Origin: a virus
Lineage: Duplodnaviria; Caudoviricetes
Virus record (IMG/VR): IMGVR_UViG_3300011334_000156
Location: 1 to 28,285 of that record
Direction: 5' to 3' (one strand)
Length of the DNA: 28,285 nucleotides
Below are positions 14,968-21,833 of this stretch, in pieces. The translations under genes and the position numbers were made by a program. The notes under the pieces are model-generated. The model made no database searches. It saw only the letters and a list, made by a program, of their open reading frames with translations, and was not told the origin of the DNA. Position 1 is the first letter of the stretch; every line of letters begins with the position of its first letter.

Positions 14968-14975
14968 TCTAAATA
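14968..14975 (+). promoter_or_regulatory. Late-promoter-like box TCTAAATA, 5 nt before ATG 14981
   Basis: CTAAATA variant in a 21-bp intergenic gap; no convincing SD, so possibly a leaderless mRNA. Confidence 0.45.
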
Positions 14976-14980
14976 GAGAT

Positions 14981-15736
14981 ATGACTACTAAAATTAGAAA
15001 AAAATGGATGGGTATTAGCCCACATCCTGAAGCACCTGACATCATGTTAAGCAGAGCAGTGAATTGGGCACCTGATTTTCAAAAGAAATACAGCACTATA
15101 AATGGTTATGAGCCCAATAACATCACAGCCGCAGTGGCTTGGACAAAGATACCCCAAGACTTAATTGCCAGTGATGCTTTCATTTATAAAGATAAATTAA
15201 CTGGCTTATGGGTGCAGGCAGTTGGTTATCCACTTATCACTAGAGAACAGGCGCAGTCTTGGATAGAACTACAGTTGTCCAATGGTGCACAAGGTTATTG
15301 GTATAACCAATACGCAGTGCCTCGCTTACCACAAAAGCCATATACACAACGAGAAGTTCCTGCCAAAACTATTGATCAAATCACTTACATTGAAATGATT
15401 GCACATCAAAACAAATTTATGGTCAATGGCATTAATTTATTGGATCTAAATCCTGTGGGTCGTCCCAAGGACATTGATGTATATGCTGAACCTAAAGAAC
15501 GAAAAATATATGAAAAGCGTGACCCCACAAAATTTCATATTAGAAGTAATAGCAAGTTCTTAATAACACCAAAAGGTGTTTATGCCAGTATTAGTAGTGC
15601 GGCTGCTGATATGGGCCTGAGTTTTTGCGGGCTTGCATATCATATGAAAAAAGGCACAAAGGGTTACACATATATCACTGCTGAAGAATACTTAATGCGA
15701 GTTGACAAGTTAAATACAAATAGCACTACAGAGTAG
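14981..15736 (+). CDS. Hypothetical protein with C-terminal NUMOD1-like DNA-binding domain
   Basis: C-terminus LITPKGVYASISSAA...GYTYITAEEYLM is paralogous to the C-termini of the 17749 and 18327 ORFs. Confidence 0.65.
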   Translation: MTTKIRKKWMGISPHPEAPDIMLSRAVNWAPDFQKKYSTINGYEPNNITAAVAWTKIPQDLIASDAFIYKDKLTGLWVQAVGYPLITREQAQSWIELQLSNGAQGYWYNQYAVPRLPQKPYTQREVPAKTIDQITYIEMIAHQNKFMVNGINLLDLNPVGRPKDIDVYAEPKERKIYEKRDPTKFHIRSNSKFLITPKGVYASISSAAADMGLSFCGLAYHMKKGTKGYTYITAEEYLMRVDKLNTNSTTE

Positions 15737-15813
15737 TGCAGATGATGTCTAATCAACATCATCGTTACTGCTAATAACTTTATCCCCGATTAGAAATAGT
15801 TGGGGATTTTTTT
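15722..15813 (+). ncRNA. Candidate small structured RNA (two hairpins plus terminator)
   Basis: TTAAATA box at 15710-15716, then hairpins 15723-15739 and 15741-15763, and terminator 15782-15813. Confidence 0.35.
15782..15813 (+). terminator. Rho-independent terminator closing the late region
   Basis: ATCCCCGATTA-GAAA-TAGTTGGGGAT stem with two G-U pairs and a GNRA loop, followed by a T-run. Confidence 0.88.
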
Positions 15814-15965
15814 ACGACTAAAGTATTAGAGTATATTTTAGTAGTATATCAACTGAAGTAGTATATAGACCAGTGAACCGTGTATTTTAGACTGAAATAA
15901 GGTTTTCGTGTTAAAAACAACACTTTTTTCGCTGTTTTCAATGCCTGTATGGCAGGATATTTTAA

Positions 15966-15994
15966 TTGGTGTAAATTAAATCCTGTGCTATACT
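15966..15994 (+). promoter_or_regulatory. sigma70-type early promoter with extended -10
   Basis: TG-C-TATACT at 15986-15994; weak -35 TTGGTG 17 bp upstream; SD GAGGAG before ATG 16031. Confidence 0.65.
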
Positions 15995-16030
15995 ATACAC
16001 TTATTAACAACGAAACGAGGAGTTTCAAAA

Positions 16031-16335: not shown

Positions 16336-16776
16336 ATGGCTCAAACACTAACTAGCAAGATTACTAAACTTGCTGAAATCTATAGCATTACTGCTATCAT
16401 TGATACTGCTAAACAAGTTCAAATTGAACAAGCAGATATCGCAGTCTGGGATGCAATGTCCACAGATGAGAAAACTGAATGGTTTTACAATCAATGTAAA
16501 AAATACGGTTTAACTACTAAAAAATTTGCTAACCAAATATCAGTTAATGAATTACTATGTAGTGGAAAACACGGTGGCACTAAAGCATATTTCTGCGTTT
16601 TTCTTCCACACCCAACTGACAACTTTCGTGGATCCGATCCTAGTGCGTGGCATTTAGAAATTGGTAGTGCTTATGCTAGTCCAAAACACGGAACTATTTG
16701 GCCTACTGCACGAGGCTTAAAAGGTAAAGAACTTCAAATTCAACAAGTAATTCGTTTACACAAGGAAGGCAAATAA
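16336..16776 (+). CDS. Early hypothetical protein
   Basis: 146 aa, SD GAGGT, first gene after the consensus promoter. Confidence 0.78.
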   Translation: MAQTLTSKITKLAEIYSITAIIDTAKQVQIEQADIAVWDAMSTDEKTEWFYNQCKKYGLTTKKFANQISVNELLCSGKHGGTKAYFCVFLPHPTDNFRGSDPSAWHLEIGSAYASPKHGTIWPTARGLKGKELQIQQVIRLHKEGK

Positions 16777-16777
16777 C

Positions 16778-17749
16778 ATGACAACACAAACTGAATTAGA
16801 AAAAGAATCATTGCTCAGCGACAATGATATTTTAGATATTGTTTTGGATGCAGAACAACAAGCAACCGAAGCAATGGAAGATACATTATCTGGATTGGTT
16901 AATCCATTGATTCTTCGTGGACCTCCAGGCACTGGTAAAAGCAAAATGATTGAGATTATTTCTCAAAAAATGAAAGTTCAAAGCACTGATATTATTAGTA
17001 GTGTTTGGACCAAACACAGCGATGATGATATTAAAGCAGGTATGACTAATTATCCATATCGTTGTGACCATCTTGTTAAAGTTGATGGTGCATTAGTTCG
17101 TGCCGGTGACTATAGTAAGTGGGCATTGGTAGCAGATCTTTATGCGAATAAAGACGGTGGTGCTCTTTGTTTAAGTGACAATGACAGTATTCTAAAAGAC
17201 AAAGATGCTGTTAGTATTATTATGAGTGCAACTGAACAAAATAAAAAGAAAATTATTAGTTATACAAAATCAAACAGCACTCACGAATTACAAATGATGG
17301 GTGTTGAACCTACATTTGAAGTTAATTGTCCAATTGTTATTATCACTAATATTGACATGGATTTGATGATTAAGGTAGCCGATGTTGAAAGTAAAAATCC
17401 TAAAAAACCAAAACCAAAACCTGAAATGATTACTCGTTGGGAAGCATTGATTAGCCGCGGCACTTACATTGATTTGAAAATGAATAGTCCTCGTAGTGTG
17501 CGAACATATTGTGAATACAAAATTAAGCAGGTTAATATGCTTACAGATAGTTCTTATCTTGAAAAGAATTTTGGTCGTAGTTTGACTACTGATGAAGCAG
17601 AATCTTGTATGAAATGGATTCGTCATAATCAAGGTAGTTTAGCACAGCCATTGGATCTTCGCACTTATAATACAGTAGCAGGTATTATGATTAATCGTAA
17701 AGATACTTGGGAAAAATCTAGTAAAGTTCGTTTCTTAAAAGGTGCATAA
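16778..17749 (+). CDS. AAA+-type P-loop ATPase
   Basis: Walker A LILRGPPGTGKS, atypical Walker B LCLSDND, sensor-1-like IVIITN, Arg-finger-like ALISRG, sensor-2-like LDLR. Confidence 0.85.
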   Translation: MTTQTELEKESLLSDNDILDIVLDAEQQATEAMEDTLSGLVNPLILRGPPGTGKSKMIEIISQKMKVQSTDIISSVWTKHSDDDIKAGMTNYPYRCDHLVKVDGALVRAGDYSKWALVADLYANKDGGALCLSDNDSILKDKDAVSIIMSATEQNKKKIISYTKSNSTHELQMMGVEPTFEVNCPIVIITNIDMDLMIKVADVESKNPKKPKPKPEMITRWEALISRGTYIDLKMNSPRSVRTYCEYKIKQVNMLTDSSYLEKNFGRSLTTDEAESCMKWIRHNQGSLAQPLDLRTYNTVAGIMINRKDTWEKSSKVRFLKGA

Positions 17750-18330
17750 TGGTTAATGTTAATGATCCAAAGTTGTGGAAGAACATTGATTGGGATGAAT
17801 CTGAAGTTCCAGAACTTCTTAAGAAAAGTGATACTCTTATAGAACAACAACAAAGAGGTAAAAGATTAAAAGATATTCGCGGAGAAAGTTGGAGACAGAA
17901 TAGTGCTAAAGGAAATAAAGAAAGATCACAAGATCCTGAGTGGCAAAAAAGCAATGATGCCGCTATGAAAAAATTAGCACAAGATCCAGAATGGTTAGAA
18001 ACTATTAGAAAAATTAGAATTGATCAGGCAAATGATCCAGATTCTAATTTTTCCAAAGCAGTAGCAGAAAGAACAGCCAGTGAAGACTGGCAAAATAAAA
18101 ACGCAATTAAAAATAGATTATTATCATCTAAACAATGTGTTACTCCATATGGTATTTTTTGGAGTCGTGCTGATGCGGCAAAATATATTTTTGAAAATAA
18201 TTTTTTACCAACAAGAAAAACAGAATCATCTGTAATGGCATTATTAGTATCTAAGTTTAAGAATAATACAAAAGAATACTATTATATCTCCAAAGAAGAA
18301 TATATTATGCTTACAGGTAAAGAAATATGA
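17749..18330 (+). CDS. NUMOD-type putative DNA-binding protein, tandem paralog 1
   Basis: DPEW-type helical repeats, then CVTPYGIFWSRADAA...YYYISKEEY; no nuclease motif seen. Confidence 0.7.
   Translation: MVNVNDPKLWKNIDWDESEVPELLKKSDTLIEQQQRGKRLKDIRGESWRQNSAKGNKERSQDPEWQKSNDAAMKKLAQDPEWLETIRKIRIDQANDPDSNFSKAVAERTASEDWQNKNAIKNRLLSSKQCVTPYGIFWSRADAAKYIFENNFLPTRKTESSVMALLVSKFKNNTKEYYYISKEEYIMLTGKEI
17759..17832 (+). repeat. 74-bp perfect direct repeat, copy 1 (copy 2 at 18337-18410)
   Basis: TTAATGATCCAAAG...AAGAAAAGTGAT is identical in the 5' ends of both paralogs. Confidence 0.97.
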
Positions 18331-18854
18331 TTAACATTAATGATCCAAAGTTGTGGAAGAACATTGATTGGGATGAATCTGAAGTTCCAGAACTTCTTAA
18401 GAAAAGTGATGCTACAGTTAATCGTAGTAGAAGTGCTTTCTTCAAAAAAGGCAACAAACAATTTAGTGAAACTATGAGCACGATTGCTAATACTAGAGAC
18501 GATGAATATAAACGTAATCATCAACAAGGTGTTAAACAACGAGATAATACTTATCAAGCCGAATGTAATGCTAGACCAGAAGTGCAAGCAAAAATTAGTG
18601 CTACTATGACTGGAAAAGAAAAAACACCAGAACATAATGCCAAAGTTGCCGCAAAGAATAAAGAACGCGGTATTCCTTGTATTACTCCTTTGGGTGTATT
18701 TCGCAGTGGTGTAGAAGCAGGATTAGCTTACAATAAACAACGTAGTGTTACCAATGGTAAAAATGCTGTAAATGGTGCTCTTAAAAAAGGTAAACCTGGA
18801 TACAAATATATCACCAAAGAAGAATACATTATGCTAACAGGCAAAGAAATCTAA
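18327..18854 (+). CDS. NUMOD-type putative DNA-binding protein, tandem paralog 2
   Basis: NUMOD3-like AKISATMTGKEKTPEHNAKVA, then CITPLGVFRSGVEAG...YKYITKEEY; no nuclease motif seen. Confidence 0.72.
   Translation: MININDPKLWKNIDWDESEVPELLKKSDATVNRSRSAFFKKGNKQFSETMSTIANTRDDEYKRNHQQGVKQRDNTYQAECNARPEVQAKISATMTGKEKTPEHNAKVAAKNKERGIPCITPLGVFRSGVEAGLAYNKQRSVTNGKNAVNGALKKGKPGYKYITKEEYIMLTGKEI
18337..18410 (+). repeat. 74-bp perfect direct repeat, copy 2
   Basis: Identical to 17759-17832. Confidence 0.97.
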
Positions 18855-18864
18855 GACAACGAAG

Positions 18865-18872
18865 TATAAATA
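18865..18872 (+). promoter_or_regulatory. T4-type late promoter box TATAAATA
   Basis: Exact consensus, intergenic, followed by a non-coding structured segment and terminator. Confidence 0.65.
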
Positions 18873-18876
18873 ACTC

Positions 18877-19013
18877 GTAGTAGGCAATTTCTTTCTTATA
18901 AAATAGACAGTTTCCTAATTTGTATTTGCCAAAGTTCCATTAGTCCTGTCCTACTACAGCGAAGTTGCAACGACCTAGCACTAAAAAGTCCAATTTATTT
19001 TGGACTTTTTTTT
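18877..19013 (+). ncRNA. Candidate late small RNA (about 135 nt), possibly an antisense regulator
   Basis: Bounded by the promoter box and terminator; closing stem GTAGTAGG (18877-18884)/CCTACTAC (18950-18957); pyrimidine-rich loop; no + strand ORF. Confidence 0.5.
18983..19013 (+). terminator. Rho-independent terminator (potentially bidirectional)
   Basis: AAAAAGTCCAA-TTTATT-TTGGACTTTTTTTT. Confidence 0.88.
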
Positions 19014-19029
19014 GGCTGAAATACTGCCA

Positions 19030-19063
19030 TTGACACATAAAACTGAATGTGTTATACTAAATA
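19030..19063 (+). promoter_or_regulatory. sigma70 promoter overlapped by a late-type box
   Basis: TTGACA (19030-19035), 17 bp, TATACT (19053-19058) with TGn extension; ACTAAATA at 19056-19063; ACACAT-N8-ATGTGT palindrome at 19033-19052. Confidence 0.85.
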
Positions 19064-19139
19064 CTGTTGATGAAGAGGGTATTGGCAAATACACACTCAA
19101 TGACTGTAGTCGTTGTTTTATTATTTTATAGGAGACATT

Positions 19140-19508
19140 ATGTCTAAAAATATCGCAAAAGGTCCATTCGTAGTCCTAGAAACATACGAACAAGAAAGTA
19201 AGTATGGTGGCAATATCTGTGTTGTCACAATAGCAAACAGTCACAGTGAAATTGCACACACTTACATAGATCCCTCAAATAAAAACTACGCATATTGGCG
19301 TGACATTATAAAATTACAAGATGCTGGTTATGGTGTAATTATTGATAACTTAAAGTATAAAGTTCGAGATGGTAGTGTGGTTAAGAAGTTTATCAAACAT
19401 TGGAATGTCAGTGAACCATTAATTAATGCTGACAGTAAACCTACTATTGTTATGACCACTGACAGTCAACAAGAAGTCTTAGATAGATTAGCAGAGGTTT
19501 TAGAATGA
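19140..19508 (+). CDS. Hypothetical protein (probable start ATG 19140; track start 19113)
   Basis: SD AGGAG precedes ATG 19140; coupled to the next gene by ATGA overlap. Confidence 0.75.
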   Translation: MSKNIAKGPFVVLETYEQESKYGGNICVVTIANSHSEIAHTYIDPSNKNYAYWRDIIKLQDAGYGVIIDNLKYKVRDGSVVKKFIKHWNVSEPLINADSKPTIVMTTDSQQEVLDRLAEVLE

Positions 19509-20254
19509 ACAGCAATGACATATTAGCCGCTATTAGACAGCGACAAGCACAAAAAGATGCTAAACTAACTGAAATTATCCCTGATGATCAGGCAGAAAAT
19601 AATATTAAATATTTCAATATATCAAATATAAAAGAAGTAATAACAAATAGAAATCTCTGTCCTAATGAGGACAAGCAGATTGACTCTTTGCCTTCAGCAC
19701 CTCTTGGGGAATCGCTACGCTCAGGGGAGAACGAGAGTTCCGTGCAGCCAGCCAAAAAGCCCAAACTGATTATGAACACACCTGACATAAACTATGCCAA
19801 AGTCAGTGTGCAAAAGCCCACAAAAGAAAATAGCAAAAGAAGAAAAATTAATCTTGATATCAATGTTAAAAACAACGGCGAGATTAAAAAACTTACATTT
19901 GCCAGTCAACCTGCACTATGGGAATATAAGCGAGATATTCAACGAGACTTTGACTGTGGTGATATTACAGAACACGAATACAATTGGTATATGGATAAAG
20001 CAAATATATTTGAAGAACTAAAAGCACTGGGACAGAGACCAATTATTGGTAAAGGTAATCGCAGAGGAGAAAAGAATACTATACGCTATACAACAGCAAT
20101 CTACTCAGGAGAACACGCACATGTTTGGCTGGGAGATTGGCACAACAAGTTTGAATTAGAAAGTCCCAGTAGTGTGAGAGCACAAAAGTATACAGACTTT
20201 ATTGGTGAATACCGAGATACAAGAAAACCCTATGTAGAAATGGACTGGTTATAA
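19505..20254 (+). CDS. Hypothetical protein, candidate replication initiator/adaptor
   Basis: 249 aa; N-terminal amphipathic helix NDILAAIRQRQ, low-complexity linker, basic C-terminal domain; function is inferred only. Confidence 0.5.
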   Translation: MNSNDILAAIRQRQAQKDAKLTEIIPDDQAENNIKYFNISNIKEVITNRNLCPNEDKQIDSLPSAPLGESLRSGENESSVQPAKKPKLIMNTPDINYAKVSVQKPTKENSKRRKINLDINVKNNGEIKKLTFASQPALWEYKRDIQRDFDCGDITEHEYNWYMDKANIFEELKALGQRPIIGKGNRRGEKNTIRYTTAIYSGEHAHVWLGDWHNKFELESPSSVRAQKYTDFIGEYRDTRKPYVEMDWL

Positions 20255-21611: not shown

Positions 21612-21833
21612 ATGGCAACAAGACAAGGGCAGTTTATGATATACTCAACAGGTAAGCCCAAAGAAGATTTTACTATAATCAATAATGAAGATTATAAATT
21701 AAAAGTGCGTAAAGTATGGGTAGAAGCCAGCAAGTGTTGGCACATTGAATTTTACAGCCAAAGTGTTTTAGATACACGATATGAGTTATTTCTCACACAT
21801 GAAGAAATAGCTAAGTTAAAGGAAATATTATAA
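21612..21833 (+). CDS. Hypothetical protein
   Basis: 73 aa, SD TAAGGT. Confidence 0.7.
   Translation: MATRQGQFMIYSTGKPKEDFTIINNEDYKLKVRKVWVEASKCWHIEFYSQSVLDTRYELFLTHEEIAKLKEIL

Follow-up and report, generated by a model that had tools for sequence, protein, structure and literature searches.

A candidate structured small RNA behind a T4-late-type promoter motif of a 28-kb phage and its predicted pairing with the leader of a replication-type operon

The window, i.e. the whole stretch of 28,285 bases analyzed here, is a complete ~28-kb siphophage genome, with a completeness rating of 99% for the virus record, a 168-base terminal repeat and a siphophage-type virion module including terminase, portal, capsid and tape measure genes (PHROGs). 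HTVC111P-type pelagiphages and phage DSL-LC06, which are similar in capsid and genome size, are its closest named capsid relatives (38-52% capsid identity). All recognized genes of the window lie on the plus strand. No sigma factor, polymerase or integrase was recognized among its proteins (38 searched against PHROGs, 27 against Pfam and 21 against NCBIfam), and a tRNA scan of the window returned none. At 17749-18854 there are two tandem paralogous genes, whose 87-base starts are 95% identical and whose ends are similar, with no family match. The locus under study lies downstream of them and contains the following features.

18865..18872, plus strand: TAAATA-type promoter motif with T4-late-like spacing, predicted start at 18877-18878; precedes 19 of 19 copies
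18877..19013, plus strand: predicted small RNA of ~137 nt; fold z -3.5, 19 full copies, no Rfam match
18877..18884, plus strand: 5' strand of closing stem P1, pairs with 18950-18957; pairing and covariation
18892..18905, plus strand: variable anti-ribosome-binding-site segment, 14 pairs with 19122-19135; cognate preference
18915..18943, plus strand: seed hairpin P3, nearly invariant at 18923-18934, loop 18928-18931; inner helix 97% paired
18950..18957, plus strand: 3' strand of closing stem P1, partner of 18877-18884
18959..18979, plus strand: small hairpin P4 with a GCAAN loop, an optional module in 15 of 19 copies including L205; pair probability 0.82
18983..19013, plus strand: intrinsic-terminator-like hairpin and U-tract, of differing sequence in all full copies
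19030..19063, plus strand: promoter of the target operon, sigma70-type (19030-19058) with an overlapping TAAATA (19058-19063); 11 of 12 consensus matches
19082..19093, plus strand: seed target in the leader; complement in 17 of 19 leaders
19098..19115, plus strand: leader hairpin followed by a U-rich tract, -5.8 kcal/mol; only in the long-leader relatives L001, L002 and L062
19122..19135, plus strand: ribosome-binding-site target, pairs with 18892-18905
19140..19508, plus strand: first target gene, 122 aa, predicted OB fold (SSB/PriB-like); model pLDDT 90.6
19505..20254, plus strand: second gene, 249 aa, in the replication-type slot of relatives; no family match (PHROGs, Pfam, NCBIfam, atlas)

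The initial annotation had placed a non-coding unit of roughly 135 nt at this locus, and its main features are all in place: the TATAAATA motif at 18865-18872, the closing stem, the terminator (11-bp arms at 18983-18993/19000-19010, U-tract to 19013) and the 12-nt inverted pair at 18921-18932/19082-19093. The unit at 18865-19013 thus comprises the TAAATA motif, the closing stem, the seed hairpin, a small GCAA hairpin and the terminator, and its fold is better than that of 200 out of 200 dinucleotide shuffles. A simple terminator scan of the window did not list the terminator at 18983..19013, and no second copy of the unit was found within the window. Searches with Rfam models gave no match at the gathering score, only four chance-level matches (up to E 10) far below it. 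We also considered whether the 5' GGCAA pairs internally with the seed and rejected this, the probability being ~0 in the window fold. The extra anti-Shine-Dalgarno tracts claimed for the loop found no support beyond the two leader sites. Of the complements named for them, AAGAAAGA and AGGACTA each occur near one start (16320 and 27370, respectively), TTAGGAAA and AGGACTAATGG are absent from the genome, and the CCATTAGTCCT tract of the loop is largely the 3' strand of an internal helix, where the sequence varies freely and is unconserved.

Eighteen other phage contigs carry the unit, giving 19 distinct full copies including that of the window; besides these, the copy in L066 is cut by the contig end and L003 is a leader-only contig. 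Copies were searched for with the downstream protein, RNA-derived patterns, an unrelated conserved gene and a motif from a different region. The RNA patterns required TAAATA, whereas the first nine copies came from the protein search. Among 39 loci picked by the unrelated conserved gene, 13 contain the RNA and 2 contain divergent units, while 3 end too early, 9 have another gene order and 12 have less than 2.1 kb upstream. The gene upstream of the unit varies from phage to phage, as does the first downstream gene in several of them, indicating that the unit is a passenger of neither neighbor. In all copies, the closing stem and the seed hairpin with its nearly invariant 12-base segment are present, together with a terminator of unrelated sequence. 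In prokaryote genomes, 92 pattern matches were obtained, two of which passed the closing-stem filter, neither with a terminator or leader. The sole match in a named phage collection is a 29-nt, terminator-like one, and the unit was not found in the two HTVC111P-type/DSL-LC06 records tested. A scan with a 17-nt seed yielded 37 matches, 35 of them due to chance, and L069 and L070 were likewise discarded as chance pattern matches. Non-homologous units with the same position and layout (promoter motif, closing stem, terminator, next promoter) are located at L166:6199-6436, L179:7916-8179 and L207:1614-1855, and those of L166 and L207 have the GCAA-loop hairpin at the 5' end, not the 3' end. Compared with shuffles, the divergent unit of L179 performs better (7 of 500 as good) but those of L166 (98 of 500) and L207 (196 of 500) do not.

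The closing stem is well supported by comparison. P1 is paired in 158 of 162 cells over 18 anchored copies, and its covariation, with two-sided changes, exceeds that of 500 out of 500 shuffles, with controls (shuffled and slid) that leave the relatedness of the copies in. As the copies are related, their counts overstate the number of independent events. In a structure-fitted alignment, 11 of 18 pairs show two-sided change, a level that none of 500 shuffles equals and that slid controls stay below, in an alignment that leans to structure and took in two chance rows and one cut-off copy. P1 tolerates G-U pairs, P3 has invariant ones, and GCAA is found both at the P1 junction and in the loop of P4.

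The number of TATAAATA motifs in the window is as expected (3 seen versus 2.97 expected), so that support for the motif comes from its position and conservation, the count giving none. All three copies are intergenic and on the coding strand. The core TAAATA occurs 17 times on the plus strand versus 6 times on the minus strand, including before the portal and scaffold genes, and this strand bias holds in 14 relatives tested, in contrast to HTVC111P (37 versus 42). TAAATA motifs precede late and other window genes at 691, 14970, 19058, 20475, 23615 and 25730. In orthologs of gene 14981, 13 of 14 have the motif (11 TAAATA, 2 TAAGTA) followed by exactly 5 bases and ATG, and the remaining one has 4 bases, so that the predicted start is set at six bases after the motif; gene 14981 (14970-14983 in the window) is predicted to be leaderless. 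Upstream of the 19 RNA copies, the sixth base after TAAATA is a purine in 12 and a purine lies within one base in the other 7, and by this spacing the RNA start is predicted on or beside the first purine of the closing stem in all 19. At the target-operon promoter, TAAATA is present in all 19 copies and a sigma70 pattern in 18 of them.

In the available text of PMC2988020, the T4 late promoter is described as a lone TATA box roughly one turn upstream of the start, without a -35 element, and TATAAATA is given as the T4 late promoter box in that of PMC3014915. The motif in the window resembles it in sequence geometry only, with a TATAAATA-like box, a start six bases downstream, and a location before structural genes on one strand. 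It differs in that the conserved core is TAAATA and in that no gp55, gp33 or clamp gene was recognized in the window. A search for a sigma-like protein found none; the model of gene 21333 was too poor for a fold search, and the atlas led to unnamed viral clusters only. TAAATA promoters without a recognizable sigma factor possibly point to helper dependence, and their reader could be the sigma factor of a helper or an unrecognized phage protein.

The model of the 122-aa product of the first target gene has its best structural match at Z 6.8 (rmsd 3.1, 87 aligned), level with OB folds other than SSBs. The best Foldseek E is 0.01; SSBs and PriB appear frequently among the top matches, and the viral proteins close to it in structure are unnamed. 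In relatives, the slot behind the first gene is occupied by primase/helicase-like genes in L061, a related domain in L058, and large proteins with shared motifs (aligned) in L001, L194, L196, L059 and L064. We read these motifs as family A DNA polymerase-like; HMM and PDB searches with the large proteins gave no match. Large motif-bearing proteins are encoded at L005:10557-12197, L194:908-2476, L196:7284-8852, L059:728-1840 and L064:6831-7907. From a middling fold match together with gene position, we infer that the operon at 19140 is a putative replication operon.

The seed faces the leader of this operon. None of 2000 loop shuffles reaches a perfect 12-nt complement with the leader, and 19082-19093 is the sole such site in the genome, apart from the opposite strand of the element itself. 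Conservation of this complementarity had been proposed as a check, and the seed complement is indeed kept in the next-operon leader in 17 of 19 copies (including L205), with a chance of ~0.02 per leader. No copy search asked for the seed complement, save one that returned only the already known L001. The target is found in the first ~22 bases after the predicted start (at ~+11 in L011), either right at the 5' end or in the loop of a small hairpin, and 7-14 contiguous seed pairs are formed between sequences of the same strand. In L176 and L194, G replaces A in the target and the seed duplex keeps a G-U wobble. The proposed covariation between RNA and target is borne out in part: positions 9-10 switch together between the window/L001 and L007-L010, but this fails in L059 and L064, and in L002 and L062 the seed duplex requires a bulge at these positions. 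When the loop was paired with its own leader, it beat dinucleotide shuffles in all 19 copies (14 of 14 at 15/500 or fewer, and 5 of 5 at 20/500 or fewer), although over the whole loop non-cognate loop/leader pairs often pair as well as cognate ones. We also considered whether the seed target might act as a -35 box and rejected this, because it is not followed by a usable -10 and the TT is missing in short-leader relatives; where TTGGCA precedes other promoters, it is just the -35 box there.

In L058 and L061, the seed is kept, yet the GGCAAAT leader is absent from the 7-12 kb fetched, so the leader target leaves part of the conservation unexplained and the retention of the seed suggests a further target. 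The window also has a candidate second target of the seed.

16768..16775, plus strand: candidate second target, a seed complement between the Shine-Dalgarno sequence and the start codon of an AAA-ATPase gene

The AAA-ATPase start carries the seed complement in all three genomes where the gene was seen (window, L009 and L011), and the AAA-ATPase proteins of the window and L009 are barely alignable.

The second pairing site covers the ribosome-binding site. The TATAAAATA/TATTTTATA match reported earlier proved to be longer, with 14 pairs, two of them G-U, across the Shine-Dalgarno sequence. With the seed removed, the rest of the loop prefers its own over foreign ribosome-binding sites (permutation p 0.00025, 14 copies), a preference that persists in eight spread copies hand-picked by eye from different clusters (p 0.005), while against shuffles the non-seed part alone reaches 25/500 or better in only 5 of 14 copies. 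In L058 and L061, where the seed target is missing, a 16-pair duplex spans the Shine-Dalgarno sequence and the AUG. When the RNA was compared with the start regions of the genome, the 19140 leader ranked first of 38, with a duplex energy of -33.0 versus -27.7 for the next; full co-folding gave it a small lead over the next start region (-14.3 versus -13.5 kcal/mol). The leader hairpin at 19098..19115 is a possible attenuator. A leader peptide was rejected, the short leader ORF being in differing reading frames in the window and L001.

Relatives without a large replication-type gene have a conserved non-coding region of 500-700 nt in the same slot, with the following coordinates.

L008:1229-1835, L009:2943-3497, L166:7196-7893 and L006:2757-3356: long non-coding region
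L007:10816-11366, L176:7766-8297, L195:7537-8089 and L011:10636-11242: long non-coding region
L179:8292-8864, L205:1554-2055 and L207:2793-3305: long non-coding region

The long region is absent from the window. It falls into at least three sequence types, mostly with a common 3' block, and had no match in Rfam, plasmids or named phages. In L006, L007, L008, L009, L010, L011, L012, L166, L176 and L195, it starts with TAAATA/TAAGTA, 7-8 bases and GGCAA. Of 149 non-coding TAARTA sites, 34 have GGCAAA at a distance of at most 26 bases, a count that includes the 5' end of the RNA itself and the leaders, versus 0-7 for seven control hexamers. L179, L205 and L207 have an ORF at the front of the region, suggesting that part of it may be a decayed gene. 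The region is a candidate origin, primer RNA or large non-coding RNA.

Taken together, the unit probably encodes a structured RNA of ~137 nt that would be transcribed from a TAAATA promoter of the T4 late type, pair in trans with the downstream operon mRNA and block translation of the predicted replication genes, a reading drawn from sequence comparison. The two complementarities are colinear and antiparallel, the seed hairpin facing the first bases of the leader and the variable 5' segment facing the ribosome-binding site. The seed loop would first touch the GGCAAA site, located right at the 5' terminus of the transcript or in the loop of a small hairpin, after which pairing would spread over the Shine-Dalgarno region and translation of the OB-fold gene would stop; through translational coupling, the overlapping second gene would also be silenced. 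Since the RNA and its target both carry TAAATA and the target also carries a sigma70-type promoter, the operon would be unopposed early and silenced once the TAAATA promoters switch on, so that replication would be wound down as packaging starts. Of the late-induced antisense RNA against early genes put forward in the initial annotation, the separate structured RNA with two leader sites is supported (conservation, covariation and G-U substitutions), and the target is narrowed from early genes in general to the replication-type operon at 19140. The word "late" reflects only the promoter type, and in the window early transcription from upstream probably also traverses the unit and ends at its terminator. 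The retention of the seed in L058 and L061 leaves room for a possible action on a helper phage. As the seed is common to the family, incoming relatives would be silenced by the RNA as well.

In an unlikely alternative, the antisense RNA is real but has its main job elsewhere or at another time, such as immunity to or exclusion of related phages, plasmid-like copy-number control, or silencing of host or helper messages. The seed is nearly invariant across the family with strong cross-pairing, L058 and L061 retain it in the absence of a local target, and no integrase was recognized among the 38 proteins; P4 CI RNA is an immunity factor according to the available text of PMC4825925. The unit also ends the upstream early operon of the window and could therefore be made early. 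However, the anti-ribosome-binding-site segment tracks the downstream gene of the phage's own genome, the promoter motif is the same as that before structural genes, and neither a helper nor a host was identified. A wider scheme, which we regard as rather unlikely, holds that a T4-type late sigma factor borrowed from a co-infecting large phage triggers the virion genes, an origin/primer RNA and the small RNA, which would time replication via the leader and the primer 5' end. If true, this would be a helper-triggered, RNA-controlled replicon in a phage with its own complete virion module. Control of a replication primer as the main role, with the RNA pairing with the 5' end of the long non-coding transcript in the manner of ColE1 RNA I/RNA II and leader pairing as a second layer, is quite improbable. 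The long region of relatives starts with the promoter motif and GGCAA at ten loci, and GGCAAA is enriched near TAARTA sites, but the window has no such region, the region matches nothing in plasmids, phages or Rfam, and the ORF at its front in three relatives means that part may be a decayed gene.

A role of the inverted motif as a protein-binding site on DNA (an operator pair or origin hairpins), without any RNA-RNA contact, is very improbable. The motif is often at operator-like positions +1 to +20, the product of the neighboring gene is predicted to bind single-stranded nucleic acid, and GCAA is repeated at the P1 junction and P4 loop. Against a DNA site, P1 tolerates G-U pairs, which are invariant in P3 and also occur in the seed duplex, the U-tract terminator is one-sided, the anti-ribosome-binding-site segment covaries with translation signals, and TTGGCA at other promoters is their -35 box. 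Least probable of all is that the unit is merely the 3' end of the upstream operon (stabilizing stems and a terminator), acting in cis on read-through, or that the complementarity arose by chance. A read-through transcript would form the same duplex intramolecularly, and the interval from 18854 to the unit showed no terminator; yet the unit keeps its own promoter motif in 19 of 19 copies, has no ORF directly upstream in L058 and L061, and is separated from its complementary half by a strong terminator and a separate target promoter. Chance is excluded by the shuffle, permutation and leader-background tests.

The predicted antisense RNA has counterparts among known systems. C4 of phage P1 is a multi-helix phage RNA that pairs in trans with a downstream message at two distinct positions, its target being an antirepressor operon. 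The unit is similar to P1/P7 C4 in being a multi-helix RNA with two predicted pairing sites in the downstream message, but its predicted target is a replication-type operon, and it has another promoter type and matches none of the C4, c4-2 and IsrK models. Plasmid copy-number RNAs are opposite-strand transcripts fully complementary to their targets. The unit would share loop-initiated pairing with them (I-complex Inc RNA/RNAI, pT181, ColE1 RNA I), but it is a same-strand RNA of partial complementarity, with a seed constant between relatives. For the I-complex Inc RNA/RNAI, the available text of PMC10724649 describes loop-initiated pairing that inhibits rep translation, and the target hexamer of the window is one base off a plasmid loop motif named in a reference title there. 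The P1/P7 C4 antisense RNA is catalogued as Rfam RF01695, as listed in the consulted part of PMC2864571. In the corresponding part of PMC4825925, P4 CI RNA pairs with sites up- and downstream (seqA/seqB/seqC) and blocks the P4 replication genes; like CI, the unit is a same-strand small RNA upstream of a complementary site that would control the replication genes of its own phage. CI, as described there, is processed from the leader of the operon that it controls and causes premature termination, whereas the unit has its own promoter motif and terminator, a separate target promoter (19 of 19 copies), and predicted pairing across the ribosome-binding site. P4 CI and the unit showed no match in sequence or to a model. 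The unit is best read as working like P4 CI and P1 C4 while belonging to neither family nor to the plasmid copy-number RNAs.

The available parts of papers on phage small RNAs (PMC12197685, PMC3014915, PMC5737381 and PMC2864571) do not describe the element, literature searches brought up no account of it, and a 2010 review states in the portion seen that no trans-acting small RNA had been characterized in T4 (PMC3014915). Four supplementary tables and documents of PMC10690425 gave no match; the alignments of that work lay outside the comparison, and the unit may be among its unnamed candidates. The unit thus appears to represent a conserved phage small-RNA family without an Rfam match, whose predicted target and both pairing sites are readable from the sequence, making it ready for a compensatory-mutation test. 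With late-type promoter wiring, the RNA would be a timer ending replication; known same-strand phage antisense RNAs guard the dormant state. The analysis also points to a group of ~28-kb phages using T4-late-type promoters without a recognizable sigma factor, and to an undescribed non-coding region of 500-700 nt replacing replication proteins in some relatives.

Nine further phages (L173, L174, L177, L183, L184, L186, L189, L190 and L199) have a different virion gene set and share the small conserved gene at window position 21612. The plus-strand TAAATA bias is found in the four of them tested, and the RNA was not seen in the parts fetched. In the window, an AT-rich non-coding stretch with short repeats (e.g. 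15840-15866) lies at 15737-16030, 3' of a terminator; similar stretches are found in L061, L166 and L167, and that of the window is a possible origin.
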